Positions 7,061 through 15,598 of a stretch of 64,000 nucleotides of DNA are shown here, one piece after another (within the stretch, counting starts at the first letter, position 1; every line of letters begins with the position of its first letter). The stretch covers positions 24,548-88,547 of the forward strand of contig JAJYYE010000012.1 of the NCBI GenBank assembly GCA_021801265.1, given 5' to 3'. The notes below the pieces were generated by a model. It worked only from the letters and a program-made list of their open reading frames with translations, ran no database searches and was not told the DNA's origin. This DNA comes from Pseudomonadota bacterium. Lineage in GTDB: Bacteria > Pseudomonadota > Gammaproteobacteria > Halothiobacillales > Halothiobacillaceae. The position numbers and the translations under genes were made by a program.

Positions 7061-7568
7061 ATGCTGAGAATGATTGTGGGCACACAGAAACGGCTACCCG
7101 AAATCCACCTTAATATGATGAGGAGCACTGACCATATCCCGGCAGGCATTCAAGAGCAAGATTTAGGGGTGGGGCTGACCGACCGTGTCATTGATGCCGC
7201 CACCTTCTCGCAGAATCGTCGTCGCTTTGTGGGTACTGACATCAAGCAGACCATCTTCGACCAGGTCGTCGAACAAGCGATTGAGCACATCTGGTTGGCG
7301 GGCGTGTCTTCTACCCCCGCCAACCTGCACAGCAGCGTGCCCTACCGGGATCAACCCAACCCCCATGCGCCAACTTTTCGGCTTTGATGTACGCGCCGTT
7401 GAATCGGACGCAGGCTACTTCACCCCCGCCATCTGCCAGAAACTGAGTGAACGCAACATCCACGGTGTCATCGGCTACCGCCGTCCGAGTCACCGGGACA
7501 GCTACTTCGACAAACGTGAAGTATGTGGACGATCAGACACAAGAGCCTACAACGGCCCCAACGGTTAG
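7061..7568 (+). pseudogene. Degraded IS1182-family transposase remnant (fragments in two frames)
   Basis: Fragments DRVIDAATFSQNRRRFVGTD... and ...VESDAGYFTPAICQKLSERNIHGVIGYRRPSHRDSYFDKRE resemble IS1182-type DDE transposases. They are frameshifted and heavily shortened. Confidence 0.6.
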
Positions 7569-7663
7569 ACCCTCAGGGCTACCGCGAGTATGCCGCGCCC
7601 CTGGACTAATCACCAGTTTCAAACATCAGACACCCCTCGAGCAGGCGTAACCGCATCCAGATA

Positions 7664-8492: not shown

Positions 8493-8582
8493 GGAGGGTT
8501 GGCAGAGCGGTTGAATGCACCGGTCTTGAAAACCGGCAAGGGTTTATCCCCTTCCAGGGTTCGAATCCCTGATCCTCCGCCA
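8493..8582 (+). tRNA. tRNA-Ser (anticodon UGA), encoded CCA end
   Basis: GGAGGGT...ATCCTCC acceptor pairing, anticodon loop CT-TGA-AA, long variable arm (GGCAAGGGTTTATCCCCTTCC), T-loop GGTTCGAATCC. Length 90 nt. Confidence 0.95.
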
Positions 8583-8620
8583 CATAACACGATTAAGCCC
8601 ATGATTTCATGGGCTTTTTT
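8569..8620 (+). repeat. attL: tRNA-Ser 3' end plus terminator hairpin (direct-repeat copy 1)
   Basis: CTGATCCTCCGCCACA (8569-8584) is identical to 15552-15567. Extended similarity continues through AAGCCCATG...ATGGG. Confidence 0.85.
8595..8620 (+). terminator. Rho-independent terminator after tRNA-Ser
   Basis: AAGCCCATG-ATTT-CATGGGCTT followed by a T-run. Confidence 0.75.
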
Positions 8621-9808: not shown

Positions 9809-9997
9809 GTTGGGGGGACTGAAGGCTGGCGCCTGCTTGTGAGGGCGGTGTGTTGGGGCAAGCAAGGTTCATTTTATGGCGGAGGAGCAGGTATTTCAGC
9901 AGCATCTAGCCGTCCCCTTTAAAATGAACGACAATCTGCATACAACTATAAACTTATCAACCATCCAGATAGCTTTCAAAAAAGTCGAACTCATTCA

Positions 9998-10453
9998 ATG
10001 GAAAACTACGAAAAAGCGCATGAATGCCGCCTTTTGGATATTGAAGCCTTGCTTGCGGGGCAAATTCCTCGGGGTACGGCAGCAGCACACCTTGGCGGCT
10101 CTGCAGTGGAGTGTCGTCTCAAGGCTTTGGTGTTGACATACCACAAAATATCGTCTTGGAATGATCACAGCTTGCGCCGCAAGGATTCAAGATTTGGTCA
10201 GCCAATTCCTCGTACTGGGCATGGCCTTATTGGCGCAGTACGCTTAATGCAAGAACTTTATGATAAGGCCAAAGCTGACCATTTATTTCTGAAACATCTG
10301 AATAATGTTACTTACCCTGCTGGCAGAAATGACACCGATTTTATTGCGTTAAGATATTCGGCGCAGGATTTAGGAGGCATGTCACTTTATGAGTGGAATA
10401 AGAGTCTGAATTATGTGCTCGGTTGGTTAAAAAAGAATGAGGCTCTACTATGA
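9998..10453 (+). CDS. HEPN-domain-like protein (151 aa), first gene of the island cargo operon
   Basis: HEPN helix pattern: AAAHLGGSAVECRLKALVL, TGHGLIGAVRLM, FIALRYSAQD, LNYVLGWLKK. Its stop overlaps the next start (ATGA at 10450-10453). Confidence 0.6.
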   Translation: MENYEKAHECRLLDIEALLAGQIPRGTAAAHLGGSAVECRLKALVLTYHKISSWNDHSLRRKDSRFGQPIPRTGHGLIGAVRLMQELYDKAKADHLFLKHLNNVTYPAGRNDTDFIALRYSAQDLGGMSLYEWNKSLNYVLGWLKKNEALL

Positions 10454-13128
10454 ATAATGTAATTAAATTACGTAAAAAGCTGGATGAGCTGTTCCCTGGG
10501 CAATATGAACTTGATGTCGGTGCAAATAAAACAGCGATTATTTTGGTGATTGATAAATCATTTGCTGAACAAACCCGCCCACAACGCTTGCAGCGTATAG
10601 AGCCCTTACTGAAGGCCACGGGCTTACAAATGGGCATTACTGACCTTTATACCCCCGATGAAGCAAACGACATGGGGATTAAACTTACACCATGCACGAT
10701 GCAAGCCCCTGCAAACTGGGATGACGCAGTTTCAATGGTCGAATCGGGTAAATCATTGAAAACGAATATCCGTGACCAAGGTCGTCCACGCCGGATTGTT
10801 TTCTATTCCTATAAAGGCGGCGTCGGAAGAACCACCGCCCTTGTACACACTGCATTTCATCTAGCCCGTAGCGGTTCGCGCGTAGTAGTGGCGGATATGG
10901 ACGTTGAAGCCCCCGGCCTTCATGCAGTTTTGCCAAAACCAGACGGTAAGCCAATCACGGCAGGATTGGTCGATTATCTTTGGGAGCGTCAAGTGCGACC
11001 ATTTGATGCCGACACAGATGAGGGACTAGAAACTTGTTTAGTCGAAGTCAAAAGAGGCCAGCGTAGTGCCATTTCTTATGCGGTTGAAGATCCAGTATCC
11101 CGTGCCCAAATCCATGTTATCCCGGCGGGCGTAGTTGGCCCCGATTTTGTAAGACGGCTTCATACCTTGTCGTATAGAGATGTGCTTACACACAATGATG
11201 ATGCATGGTCACTGTTTGAAAAGGAGCTCATAGAGCAACTCCAACCCGATATTTTATTGATTGATGCTCGAACTGGCCTTGGCGATTGGGGTGGACTGTC
11301 GCTGTTACGTTTGGCCGATGAAGCGTTCTTGGTGCTTTATCCCAGCGACCAAAATATTGAAGGCCTAAACTTTGTTCGCCGGACCTTACAGGATTTAACT
11401 GGGATCAAAACACACTTAGTGTTGTCCCCGATTCCAGAAGGTGTGGTTGGACGTGAATTGGTAGCGCACTTCCGCCCACAACTAGGATTAGATGAGGATG
11501 AGCCATGCGTCGAAATTCATTACAACCCAGGTATTGCTTCTGCACCCTACTACCCAGTTGAAAGTGCAATGGCTAGCTATGCACGCCTGGCTAACATAAT
11601 TCGTGAAACTGAGGTTGAAGACAAGCTGGAAGTCACTTTAAAGAGTACAGATCGCTGGTCAATGATTGAGTCGCTCACGTTTCCGAAACATGACGCGAAA
11701 TCAATTGTGGCGGACAATTTTGATGCTTTTTTTCAAAAGACATCAGATTTTGACAAATTCCTAGACGATGCCCGTTGGGTTATTCGTGGCCGGAAAGGCA
11801 CCGGAAAATCAACCTTGTTCCATCTTTTTGTTGAACACCCCGATAGCGCGATCAAACGTGCAAGGGGCAAGCTTGAACATGTCATCATTCTCCCTGGGCA
11901 CGGCTCAACTGATGGCGCGAAGTTTCGGCCAGCCACAGACGTGTTTGGAACGATTCAAAGGGAACTTGAAAAGGCTGGGCACGATTGGCTTTCCTTATGG
12001 CGTGCCTATGCAATTGTCCGAATTTTTACTTCAAACAAAGAAGAGTTGTTGGCAGCGGGCTTAAGGAAGCCTGAAATGAAAAGATTGCGAACACATCTGC
12101 AAAATAATTTCCGCAATAACACGGATACCGTTCCCGATCAGTGGAGGTCAAGGCACACCAGTGCACTTTTGTCGCTTTTACATGATCCTTTGAATGGTCT
12201 TTGTCGCGACCTTATGGGCGATTTAAATAAAGAATTAGGTGCGAAGGGCGTAAAACTCTGGTTGCTCTATGACGACCTTGATCAAGATATCGATGAAAAA
12301 AGTCCGTGGCAAAGTGATGCCCTTGGTGGCTTGTTGCGGCTTGCTTATGACGCCAACAATATGGACTTGCATAACTTTCGCTTTAAGGTGTTTTTGCGTG
12401 AAGATATTTGGAGTAAATTGGTATTTACCAACAAGAGTCATTTCGGCGAACCGAGGACTCTCCTGCTTCAGTGGAAGATCGATGATTTTCTGCGACTTGC
12501 ATATCGCTTGGCAACGGGGGGCTCCAAGCAGTTTCATGCGCTTACACTACAATCTGTGCCATTAACCGAATCAGAGGTCGATACAGCAAGCGAGGAACAG
12601 CTTCGTCAAGCACTTGCACCGCTTTGGGGCTTGAATCAAGAGAAGGGGAAAAATGCTTTCGTGGCTAGATGGGTTTATTCCCGCATGACGGATTCTAGGG
12701 ATAATACCTATCCGCGCTCACTTACTGTCCTTTTACAAAAAGCAAAAGATCACGAACTTGAAGGCAAAAACAGCTCGAAGCCCATTGCCAGTGATCGGTT
12801 ACTCAGCCGGCCTGCGATGCAGGCCGGTTTAATAGAAGCATCGGTAGAACGCGTCAACGCAATCAAAAATGAATACCCCAATCTGGTCGCATTTCTTGAA
12901 AATGTTTGCAACACAAACTCTCTGCCATCCCAGTTCAGAAGCGACGCACTACATGCCGTATGGCAAGCCACCTCGCAGTCAGAGTATTCCACTTTTGAGG
13001 CATTTATAGTGCAGTTAGAAGATGCAGGCTTATTGATGAAGAAGAATGGAAAAACATATGATTATGGCTTCGCTACACTCTATATTGATGGGCTTGGCGG
13101 CAGACGTGTAATGGGGGAGAAAAAATAG
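10450..13128 (+). CDS. 892-aa double P-loop NTPase: ParA/MinD-like module (KGGVGR) plus a second Walker A/B ATPase module
   Basis: First module: YKGGVGRTT (aa 121-129), VVVADMDVEAPG, ILLIDARTGLGD. Second module: GRKGTGKST (aa 447-455) with LWLLYDDLD (aa 603-611). Long uninterrupted ORF. Confidence 0.85.
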   Translation: MNNVIKLRKKLDELFPGQYELDVGANKTAIILVIDKSFAEQTRPQRLQRIEPLLKATGLQMGITDLYTPDEANDMGIKLTPCTMQAPANWDDAVSMVESGKSLKTNIRDQGRPRRIVFYSYKGGVGRTTALVHTAFHLARSGSRVVVADMDVEAPGLHAVLPKPDGKPITAGLVDYLWERQVRPFDADTDEGLETCLVEVKRGQRSAISYAVEDPVSRAQIHVIPAGVVGPDFVRRLHTLSYRDVLTHNDDAWSLFEKELIEQLQPDILLIDARTGLGDWGGLSLLRLADEAFLVLYPSDQNIEGLNFVRRTLQDLTGIKTHLVLSPIPEGVVGRELVAHFRPQLGLDEDEPCVEIHYNPGIASAPYYPVESAMASYARLANIIRETEVEDKLEVTLKSTDRWSMIESLTFPKHDAKSIVADNFDAFFQKTSDFDKFLDDARWVIRGRKGTGKSTLFHLFVEHPDSAIKRARGKLEHVIILPGHGSTDGAKFRPATDVFGTIQRELEKAGHDWLSLWRAYAIVRIFTSNKEELLAAGLRKPEMKRLRTHLQNNFRNNTDTVPDQWRSRHTSALLSLLHDPLNGLCRDLMGDLNKELGAKGVKLWLLYDDLDQDIDEKSPWQSDALGGLLRLAYDANNMDLHNFRFKVFLREDIWSKLVFTNKSHFGEPRTLLLQWKIDDFLRLAYRLATGGSKQFHALTLQSVPLTESEVDTASEEQLRQALAPLWGLNQEKGKNAFVARWVYSRMTDSRDNTYPRSLTVLLQKAKDHELEGKNSSKPIASDRLLSRPAMQAGLIEASVERVNAIKNEYPNLVAFLENVCNTNSLPSQFRSDALHAVWQATSQSEYSTFEAFIVQLEDAGLLMKKNGKTYDYGFATLYIDGLGGRRVMGEKK

Positions 13129-13289
13129 CTACAAGGGGCGCATCACGGCTCCCTCACTCTCCAATAGCCCTGCAGCGTTCACGGATGAAAACACAAGCTT
13201 GATGAGCTTTCCCAATCGGTCTGAGTGTAGTGGTCTAATGAAACCGGACACTGATTTAGGCGAGAATCATCGTCATAGAGAGGTGTCTG

Positions 13290-14449
<1,160 letters not shown>

Positions 14450-14457
14450 CCACTACA

Positions 14458-15375
14458 TACCAGCCCGGTGTCAAATGCTCGCTGCTTTTTAAGGATTTCG
14501 ATGGCGGTGCGGGATAAAGGAACCCGATGCTGGAATTTGGCCTTCATGCGTTCTGGGGGAATGGTCCAGACTCGTTGTTCAAAATCGACTTCACCCCAGG
14601 TCATGCCACGGACTTCACCTGAACGCGCGGCTGTCAGAATCAGGAATTTAAGCAGTGCTCGTGATACGTCGTAATCTTCCACCACCAAATGGGTTTTCCA
14701 AAATTCAGGAATAATGCGCCAAGGCATAGCCGGTTGGTGCTCGACCCGAACAGCTTTACTAGGTTGTTGGGGCAGCAGGTGTCCGACTACATCGACGGGA
14801 TTGGATTTGCAATACCCATGAGCCCAGCCCCACGCTAGAACAGTATTAATGCGTTGCTTTAGTCGACTGGCGGTTTCCGGCTTGCTGAGCCAGATGGGAC
14901 GCAAGGCATCGGCTATGTGGCGAGGCTCCAGTTGATCGATCGGGATTTCACCGATGATGGGTGCCGCATACTCTCGGAGCGTGTTGATCCACTGGGCTTG
15001 GTGCTTAACATTCTTCCAGCCGGGTTTGAGTTCGGCATAAACCGTTTCAGCTGCATCTTTAAATAATGGAATGACGGCTGCTTTAGCCGCAACCTGTGCG
15101 GCCTCGGCTTTGAGTTCCAGCGGATCAATACCTTCGGTCAGCTGCTCACGAAATAGCACCCCCTTCTTACCGGCCTCAGCAATACCCACGTCTGGGTATC
15201 CCCCTAAACCGGCTTTACGCCGTTTCTGGGTCACAGGGCTGGTGTAACGCAAAATCCACTTTCCGTGTCCTTTAGTACTCGAAGGCTCAAGTGCGAGGCC
15301 AGTGACTCCGCCATGCGGCAAAAGCCCATCATCTGGCTTCATGTTCCGTGCTTTTGCATCCGTAATAACTGCCAC
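14458..15375 (-). pseudogene. P4-type tyrosine integrase, C-terminally truncated by the IS3 element
   Basis: The N-terminal arm-binding-like domain (KARNMKPDD...GLALEPSSTKGHGKWILRY) and the first catalytic Arg region (LTAARSGEVRGMTWGEVD) are present. The sequence ends at the IS boundary before the HxxR and Tyr motifs. Confidence 0.85.
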
Positions 15376-15551: not shown

Positions 15552-15598
15552 CTGATCCTCCGCCACAAAATCCAATAAGCCCATGTTTTTTATGGGTT
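15552..15598 (+). repeat. attR: duplicated tRNA-Ser 3' end fragment plus hairpin (direct-repeat copy 2)
   Basis: CTGATCCTCCGCCACAAAATCCAATAAGCCCATGTTTTTTATGGG compared with the tRNA end CTGATCCTCCGCCACATAACACGATTAAGCCCATGATTTCATGGG. Confidence 0.85.

Follow-up and report, generated by a model that had tools for sequence, protein, structure and literature searches.

A putative B–C fusion variant of the predicted phage defence candidate PDC-M28 carried by a decayed tRNA-Ser island

Within a 64,000-nt window of contig JAJYYE010000012.1 from a member of the Halothiobacillaceae, we analyzed two adjacent genes, here named A and BC, that lie on a genomic island next to its integration target, a tRNA-Ser(UGA) gene. 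Coordinates are positions in this window, that is, in the whole stretch of DNA analyzed, unless the handle of another locus (such as L033) goes with them, and residue numbers are those of the window proteins (Table 1). The initial annotation had described two open reading frames (ORFs), 9998-10453 (151 aa) and 10450-13128 (892 aa), sharing an ATGA overlap. Both the coordinates and the junction were confirmed: at CTACTATGAATAAT, the TGA stop codon of A lies within the ATGA that holds the start ATG of BC, giving a 4-nt overlap. The island was likewise found to be AT-richer than its surroundings and att-bounded, as proposed, with a GC content of 0.455-0.497 over 9-13 kb versus 0.53-0.59 in the flanks and an exact 16-nt repeat at its two ends. 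Apart from the transposase of an insertion sequence (IS), A and BC are its sole sizeable intact genes. The earlier statement that they are the only large ones therefore holds with respect to the integrase, which is truncated, but not with respect to the IS3-family transposase ORF (13592-14449, 285 aa), which looks intact.

Table 1. Coordinates of the A–BC genes, the modules of BC and the features of the surrounding island.
Feature	Position	Strand	Details
tRNA-Ser(UGA), island integration target	8493..8582	+	ARAGORN; Rfam tRNA model, 56 bits
attL core CTGATCCTCCGCCACA, equal to the tRNA 3' end	8569..8584	+	exact 16-nt direct repeat
Third copy of the att core/tRNA 3' end, inverted, slightly degenerate	9871..9895	-	inverted repeats; ~100 nt upstream of A
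Gene A	9998..10453	+	ORF, 151 aa; predicted HEPN-superfamily subunit, PDC-M28A-like
Gene BC	10450..13128	+	ORF, 892 aa; three-module NTPase, PDC-M28B and PDC-M28C fused
BC N-domain, aa 1-112	10450..10785	+	small alpha/beta domain, tentatively BolA-like
BC KGGVGR module, aa 113-400	10786..11649	+	ParA/MinD/Soj fold; Walker A YKGGVGRTT, nt 10810-10836
BC Sll1717-family P-loop ATPase, aa 401-892	11650..13125	+	Walker A GRKGTGKST, nt 11788-11814; Walker B LWLLYDDLD, nt 12256-12282
IS3-family element	13226..14457	+	25-nt inverted repeats; Pfam rve, HTH_21, rve_3
P4-type tyrosine integrase remnant	14458..15375 (ORF 14377-15375)	-	Pfam Arm-DNA-bind_3, Phage_int_M; catalytic domain cut after ~306 aa
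attR core CTGATCCTCCGCCACA	15552..15567	+	exact 16-nt direct repeat of 8569..8584

The larger protein belongs to a well-populated family. Hundreds of full-length homologues were retrieved at E = 0, so that chance is not an issue, and members from different phyla still share ~50% identity and dozens of invariant residues. With 80 homologues as input, AlphaFold2 gave a model with a mean predicted local distance difference test (pLDDT) score of 85. From the letters alone, two independent P-loop modules had been read in this protein, and a public family of KGGVGR-motif variant ATPases had been raised as a possible placement. Both suggestions were upheld by curated NCBIfam models: aa 113-313 passed NF047398 (AAA_KGGVGR, ‘KGGVGR-motif variant AAA ATPase’) with 158.1 bits versus a cutoff of 90, and aa 413-874 passed NF047389 (‘P-loop ATPase, Sll1717 family’) with 142.3 bits versus a cutoff of 75. 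All motifs that the initial annotation had quoted for the 892-aa protein lie at the residues it gave and vary little or not at all in alignments of 16 and of 80 homologues. In these alignments the conserved positions comprise Y121-K122-G-G-V-G-R127-T, D149/D151 and D272-A-R-T-G276 in the middle module and G447-R-K-G-T-G-K453-S and Y607-D-D-L-D611 in the C-terminal half, with K122-G-G-V-G-R127 invariant in the 80 sequences.

Pfam recognized only the first ~45 residues of the middle module. Structural comparison of this module with Foldseek gave highly significant matches to Soj, ParA, MinD, FlhG and BcsQ, with Soj (1wcv) at E 2.8e-7 and a template modelling (TM) score of 0.70 on the target. Aligned with Escherichia coli MinD, K122 corresponds to the signature Lys (MinD K11), D149 and D151 to the switch-I DxD and D272 to the Walker B Asp, while R127 stands in place of the P-loop Lys (MinD K16). 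The module thus retains all that a nucleotide-sandwich dimer requires, with the catalytic Lys as the one exception. P-loop Lys-to-Arg substitutions usually preserve nucleotide binding and abolish hydrolysis, and we therefore predict that this module binds nucleotide with little hydrolysis.

Such a fold, with its conserved signature Lys and switch residues, is what would be expected of a mobile ParA/MinD-type cellular regulator or positioning machine acting on the division site, a cargo, the nucleoid or a stress response. Several features of BC speak against this assignment. The P-loop Lys is an Arg, and the equivalog models for ParA, MinD, RepA and ArsA stayed far below their cutoffs and matched the P-loop region only (ParA_partition, 27 bits versus 180; minD_bact, 22 versus 213). 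Moreover, neither a ParB and centromere nor a MinC- or MinE-like partner was found in the window or in nine annotated genomic contexts. Outside the A–BC family, KGGVGR modules occur in fusion with TPR arrays or with Metallophos, NACHT and FGE-sulfatase domains. Such fusion architectures have been described as NTP-dependent conflict systems of multicellular prokaryotes, with MinD/ParA-like domains that are ‘predicted to be inactive’ and treated as effector-type modules (Kaur, Burroughs, Iyer and Aravind 2020, eLife; PMC7159879). We infer that the KGGVGR domains correspond to this ‘inactive MinD/ParA’ class.

In databases, homologues carry the names ‘tyrosine-protein kinase family protein’, ‘MinD-like ATPase’ and ‘cellulose biosynthesis protein BcsQ’, which appear to be over-annotations derived from P-loop similarity. 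The first of these names, given by NCBI and UniRef to many members, would make the KGGVGR module a protein tyrosine kinase resembling bacterial tyrosine kinases (BY-kinases) and the operon a phospho-signalling system, and weak matches to TIGR01007 (E 0.041) and to the structures 4jlv and 6z0p (E 0.3-0.5) point the same way. These matches, however, lie far below thresholds and cover the P-loop only, and the curated AAA_KGGVGR model scores better. BY-kinases have a Walker A' of the form DxDxR, whereas the corresponding region here reads DMDVEAPG, and a C-terminal tyrosine cluster is not evident. We regard a kinase function as highly improbable.

The C-terminal half of BC combines a classical Walker A, a Walker B of the type hhhhYDDLD and, behind strand 2, a helical insertion of ~100 residues. 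Next come a helical domain and, in the predicted structure, a terminal helix-helix-hairpin winged helix at ~aa 831-882. Foldseek retrieved Cdc6 (1fnn, E 1e-5) for this half, while Pfam yielded only weak AAA_16 and WHD_MCM8 signals and a PDB sequence search with the half alone returned no matches. The last residues (aa 882-892, 13093-13125) form a tail, RVxGEKK, in which R886 and G889 are invariant in 80 sequences despite predicted disorder (pLDDT ~38); this tail could be a docking or arginine-finger-like peptide.

At the other end of the protein, the N-domain shows an alpha-beta-beta-alpha-beta-alpha topology in the AlphaFold2 model, compatible with a BolA fold. It had no Pfam match. A PDB-wide profile search placed BolA-like protein 2 (5y4b) first (E 0.067, aa 5-72) and the SufE-BolA protein 4pui sixth, but hhalign against E. 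coli BolA gave a probability of only 3.8%, and the label BolA-like is for this reason used tentatively. If correct, it would lend some support to the positioning machine considered above, as E. coli BolA is annotated as a morphogene and transcription factor.

Gene A was more difficult to place. Direct searches of its product in Pfam, NCBIfam and PHROG gave no match, PDB sequence searches with close and broad A-family profiles returned nothing or noise, and a Foldseek search of the A model against viral structures produced nothing significant. The AlphaFold2 model shows a bundle of helices interrupted by an insert, residues 49-76 (pLDDT 90; predicted TM score 0.87), and its top matches among PDB structures were of the HEPN type (4nqf, Csm6, the sacsin HEPN domain with a TM score of 0.54, and YutE). 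A search of 1.8 billion representatives with a profile built from 27 homologues retrieved only 113 proteins, nearly all of 130-200 aa. The most distant full-length relative, P0257, passes the Pfam HEPN model PF05168 with 34.4 bits versus a cutoff of 22. When the close A family, in an alignment that excluded P0257, was compared with this protein by hhalign, a probability of 94.6% over 125 columns was obtained, with the ECxLK helix, the (NP)GH motif and the (L)RY motif aligned. Since the family profile reaches a Pfam HEPN member, we place A, as far as its sequence can tell, in the HEPN superfamily, in agreement with the HEPN helix pattern that had been noted in the initial annotation and with the top, if non-significant, structural matches.

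Residue conservation, counted across 49 diverse family members, revealed an unusual pattern. R11, C39, H75 and Y120 are invariant, and H31, G34, E38, K42, W54, P107, R119 and W133 are at least 90% conserved. Together they include the motif E38-C39-x-x-K42 and the pair R119-Y120. The initial annotation had failed to find a canonical Rx4-6H RNase motif, and its absence extends to the family: R119 is present in 48 of the 49 members, but a His follows 5-7 residues downstream in only one. An R25-x5-H31 pattern occurs in 37 of the 49; its site, the beginning of helix 2, is not the canonical one. By these motifs, A is predicted to be a ‘classical’, nucleotide-binding type of HEPN protein with an unusual invariant Cys/His set.

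We then assessed how consistently the two genes occur together. We scanned one genome for each GTDB species and identified 37 loci with a full or near-full BC homologue. In every one of them that has upstream DNA, an A-profile match abuts the BC start, and the same arrangement was seen in further genomes. Co-conservation of the pair, which had been left to be checked in other genomes, was thus found at every informative locus, with A directly upstream of BC across Beta-, Gamma-, Alpha- and Deltaproteobacteria, Cyanobacteria and Anaerolineae. A and BC have also diverged in parallel, their distances from the window proteins correlating with a Pearson r of 0.82 (n = 44, partly redundant). Two ORFs upstream of A, of 122 and 80 aa, were considered as third and fourth operon genes and rejected, as they are absent from all other loci; the conserved unit is therefore A plus BC.

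Comparison with PADLOC-DB v2 related this unit to a catalogued candidate. BC matches PDC-M28B (PDLC04559; E 3.5e-31, 107 bits, aa 108-308) and PDC-M28C (PDLC04561; E 3.9e-21, 73 bits, aa 436-845), while the match of A to PDC-M28A is weak and confined to aa 2-61 (E 4.7e-5, 21.9 bits). PDC-M28 is a three-gene cassette, CAS_00115, with 121 occurrences, and one of 145 ‘phage defence candidates’ predicted by guilt-by-embedding, in this case from genes found inside BREX, DISARM and type I restriction-modification (RM) loci (Payne et al., bioRxiv 10.1101/2024.01.29.577857, supplementary file 8). The earlier description of the system as undescribed was consequently too strong, with PDC-M28 A, B and C listed in PADLOC-DB v2 and both ATPase modules named in NCBIfam. 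PDC-M28 requires three separate adjacent genes; here, B and C form one 892-aa ORF, and PADLOC would probably not call the window locus.

Relatives with other gene arrangements bridge the two forms. An Enterobacter bugandensis IncF plasmid, on which the cassette adjoins a tyrosine recombinase gene, encodes separate A (179 aa), B (438 aa) and C (491 aa) proteins that match the PDC-M28 models with 415, 448 and 576 bits. A Fibrobacteria metagenome-assembled genome (MAG) also carries split A, B and C genes and forms part of a graded series toward PDC-M28. A Nostoc plasmid encodes a 147-aa A and an 890-aa BC, the latter 29% identical to the window protein, with the same 4-nt overlap; the cassette lies beside hsdR. 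We rejected the idea that this copy resides inside a type I RM operon, since only the adjacent hsdR and no hsdM-sized ORF was seen. The PDC-M28A model detected the A proteins of Nostoc (E 2.4e-10) and Fibrobacteria (E 3.3e-12), and the Enterobacter A matched the hidden Markov model of our family (E 3e-7); these intermediates support homology between A and PDC-M28A. At the far end of the series, the 842-aa metagenomic protein P0197 unites in a single chain a HEPN-like A, the N-domain and the KGGVGR module with the first part of the Sll1717 module, representing a Rosetta-stone fusion of all three PDC-M28 components. A further cyanobacterial protein, P0294, is a split homologue at a contig end. 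From these comparisons, A–BC is classified as a B–C fusion variant, remote in sequence, of the predicted PDC-M28.

The genomic surroundings of the cassette vary widely, often with an integrase, IS elements or other parts of mobile elements at its side. It was found between nrdB and a SymE toxin gene in Cupriavidus, between aceE and an IS cluster in Xanthomonas campestris, next to pilA in Pseudomonas and at the edge of an AlpA/RepA_C/KfrA island in Burkholderia multivorans. In another genome it lies beside IS fragments, and in yet another it is surrounded by core genes, close to genes for ParD and Barstar. A P. aeruginosa copy is followed directly downstream by a gene for a PAPS-reductase-like protein (L003, 10944-12452; ~500 aa), which may belong to a further accessory or defence module. 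Two large neighboring ORFs that were considered as second BC copies (L013 and L017) were rejected; they encode an MMPL protein and a glycosyltransferase. Frameshifted or fragmented cassettes were detected for BC in Methylocucumis oryzae (L033, 3272-5912) and for A in two MAGs (L015, 1092-1570; L068, 8549-9004), which could reflect accessory-gene decay or assembly errors. The cassette is rare on plasmids, and a search at the DNA level found no plasmid relatives. Considering the varied sites, the decaying copies, the absence of protein relatives from a phage collection and the rarity on plasmids, A–BC behaves as a horizontally mobile accessory cassette.

Many hosts are filamentous, including the cable bacteria Electrothrix and Electronema, Thioploca, Parabeggiatoa and Crenothrix as well as Oscillatoria, Spirulina, Nostoc and Anaerolineae (loci L011, L012, L019, L020, L022, L026-L028, L030, L036 and L065 for filamentous or multicellular hosts), in a dataset with uncontrolled sampling. 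This over-representation, with the same reservation about sampling, and the mostly housekeeping neighbors would suit a ParA/MinD-type regulator or positioning machine. Against it stand the lack of a conserved genomic site between genera, the patchy distribution and the pseudogenised copies, in addition to the features of BC given above, and we consider this explanation quite unlikely.

The same surroundings bear on a second alternative, in which the cassette is a selfish addiction module of the toxin-antitoxin (TA) kind that stabilizes its carrier island or plasmid, with A as a HEPN toxin held in check by the large ATPase. HEPN proteins act as toxins in MNT-HEPN systems, A and BC are tightly coupled through their 4-nt overlap, and the cassette often occurs on islands or plasmids and near genes for SymE, RelE/MqsA, ParD or GNAT/DUF1778 proteins. 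A conserved three-domain NTPase of 892 aa, however, far exceeds what an antitoxin needs, single-chain A-B-C fusions fit poorly with a labile antitoxin paired with a stable toxin, and A is devoid of the canonical RNase motif. TA and abortive-infection roles can, moreover, coexist. We judge a purely selfish module to be unlikely.

In the window itself, the carrier island is decayed and no longer able to move. The IS3-family element truncates the P4-type integrase, whose match to Phage_integrase is limited to profile positions 24-82 of 172. The element lacks a target-site duplication (flanks GAG versus TAC; far end at 14457-14460) and begins only 98 nt after the BC stop codon (13128-13226), which together make an adjacent deletion probable. 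Such an IS-associated deletion probably took the 3' end of the integrase gene and perhaps removed further island cargo. The integrase start adjoins attR and reads inward; given this orientation and the inverted third att copy, the island looks composite or internally inverted. Rfam, promoter and terminator scans of the island identified only the tRNA and its terminator, with other matches at chance level. Just outside the island and beside the tRNA, between recC and an OmpA/Pal-like gene, overlapping short ORFs at 7061-7650 look like degraded transposase fragments.

Bringing these data together, we favor, at roughly even odds (probability about 0.5), the interpretation that A and BC form a conflict module controlled by a nucleoside triphosphate switch and directed against phages or other mobile elements in the manner of abortive infection. 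Translational coupling and the fusion forms point to a single A–BC complex of fixed stoichiometry. In this complex, the Sll1717-type, Cdc6-like ATPase with its winged helix would sense an invader cue, either DNA or protein, and would shift its nucleotide or oligomeric state on sensing. The KGGVGR module would provide a nucleotide-dependent dimerization or scaffold element that hydrolyzes slowly or not at all. A, made 1:1 through coupling and bound to BC, would be the output, acting as a non-canonical RNase or as a nucleotide-binding regulator, and its activation would arrest the cell or damage invader RNA.

The anti-phage or abortive-infection system proposed in the initial annotation thus remains plausible as a conflict system, but its defence role, like the parts of sensor, scaffold and effector, is inferred, the parts being assigned by analogy only, and several further observations weigh against it. 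The 113 ORFs flanking 33 cassettes are mostly housekeeping genes (trpEG, nrdAB, aceE, hrpA, acrB, putA and others), so that enrichment in defence islands is not demonstrated; matches to defence models among them were limited to HEC-02A/B once, mad2 three times, one SNF2 helicase and SoFic. The phage collection contained no protein relatives and PHROG no annotation. The HEPN fold matches of A in Foldseek are individually non-significant (E 0.6-7), and the canonical RNase motif is missing from A. Literature searches found no experiments on PDC-M28 or the A–BC family and no relevant mention of KGGVGR, Sll1717, PDC-M28 or the combination of ParA/MinD-like, anti-phage and HEPN.

A more far-reaching possibility, which we put forward tentatively and as rather unlikely, is a new type of immune or conflict machine. 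In it, a ParA/MinD switch crippled in hydrolysis by the Lys-to-Arg exchange would link a sensor ATPase of the ORC/Cdc6-like kind with a non-canonical HEPN subunit acting via Cys39, His75 and Glu38-x3-Lys42. In the HEPN-like domain of kanamycin nucleotidyltransferase, a Glu/Lys pair completes the nucleotide site in trans. By analogy, A could bind nucleotide or complete the defective ATP site of its partner in trans. Should such a machine exist, the apparent preference for filamentous or multicellular hosts would reflect kin-protective suicide.

The A–BC operon is a good, well-defined experimental lead, with no surprising property demonstrated. If active, it would give functional access for the first time to PDC-M28, to the widespread KGGVGR ‘variant ParA’ domain and to the Sll1717 ATPase family. 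The split, partly fused and fully fused forms of A, B and C already define the complex, and family members occur in tractable hosts, among them P. aeruginosa, X. campestris, Burkholderia, Ralstonia, Cupriavidus and, on the IncF plasmid, Enterobacter. Current defence-finding pipelines probably miss the fused form.

Among known systems, classical ParA, Soj and MinD proteins share with BC the fold (TM score of 0.70 to Soj), the signature Lys, the switch-I DxD and the Walker B Asp, but BC differs in the Arg at the P-loop Lys position, in the embedding of the module between two other domains and in its scores below the equivalog cutoffs. The families NF047398 and NF047389 both include BC; their names carry no function and leave out the HEPN partner and the operon. 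Relatives of the KGGVGR module share the NACHT, TPR, Metallophos and FGE-sulfatase fusions of the conflict systems in PMC7159879, where, however, the domains belong to vWA-MoxR and STAND ternary systems, whereas here a HEPN protein and an Sll1717 ATPase are combined. STAND/AVAST proteins and ORC/Cdc6-like AAA+ ATPases resemble the C-terminal half of BC in their overall layout, in which the P-loop ATPase leads into a helical domain and then a winged helix; a distant member of the family weakly matches nSTAND3. Unlike STAND/AVAST proteins, BC is without a NACHT or NB-ARC match in Pfam, a repeat-type sensor domain or an AVAST match in PADLOC.

A resembles the HEPN proteins of MNT-HEPN (HepT/MntA) systems and HEPN effectors of the Csm6, Cas13 and RnlA types in being a small HEPN protein beside a nucleotide-handling partner. 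In contrast to MNT-HEPN, its only conserved neighbor is BC, which has no nucleotidyltransferase domain in Pfam; in contrast to the RNase effectors, it lacks Rx4-6H at the canonical position and has the invariant Cys39 and His75 instead. Its E-x-x-x-K motif is typical of classical nucleotide-binding HEPN proteins (PF05168). The closest counterpart is PDC-M28, with which the locus shares an A protein bearing ECxLK, H and RY motifs, a B part consisting of the N-domain and the KGGVGR ATPase, an Sll1717-type C part, the order A-B-C, coupled genes and an association with mobile elements. It differs in that B and C are one polypeptide and in the remoteness of model similarity (22, 107 and 73 bits versus 415, 448 and 576 bits for the Enterobacter proteins). 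What is new is therefore the B–C fusion architecture as a PDC-M28 variant, within a family already catalogued as a predicted candidate.

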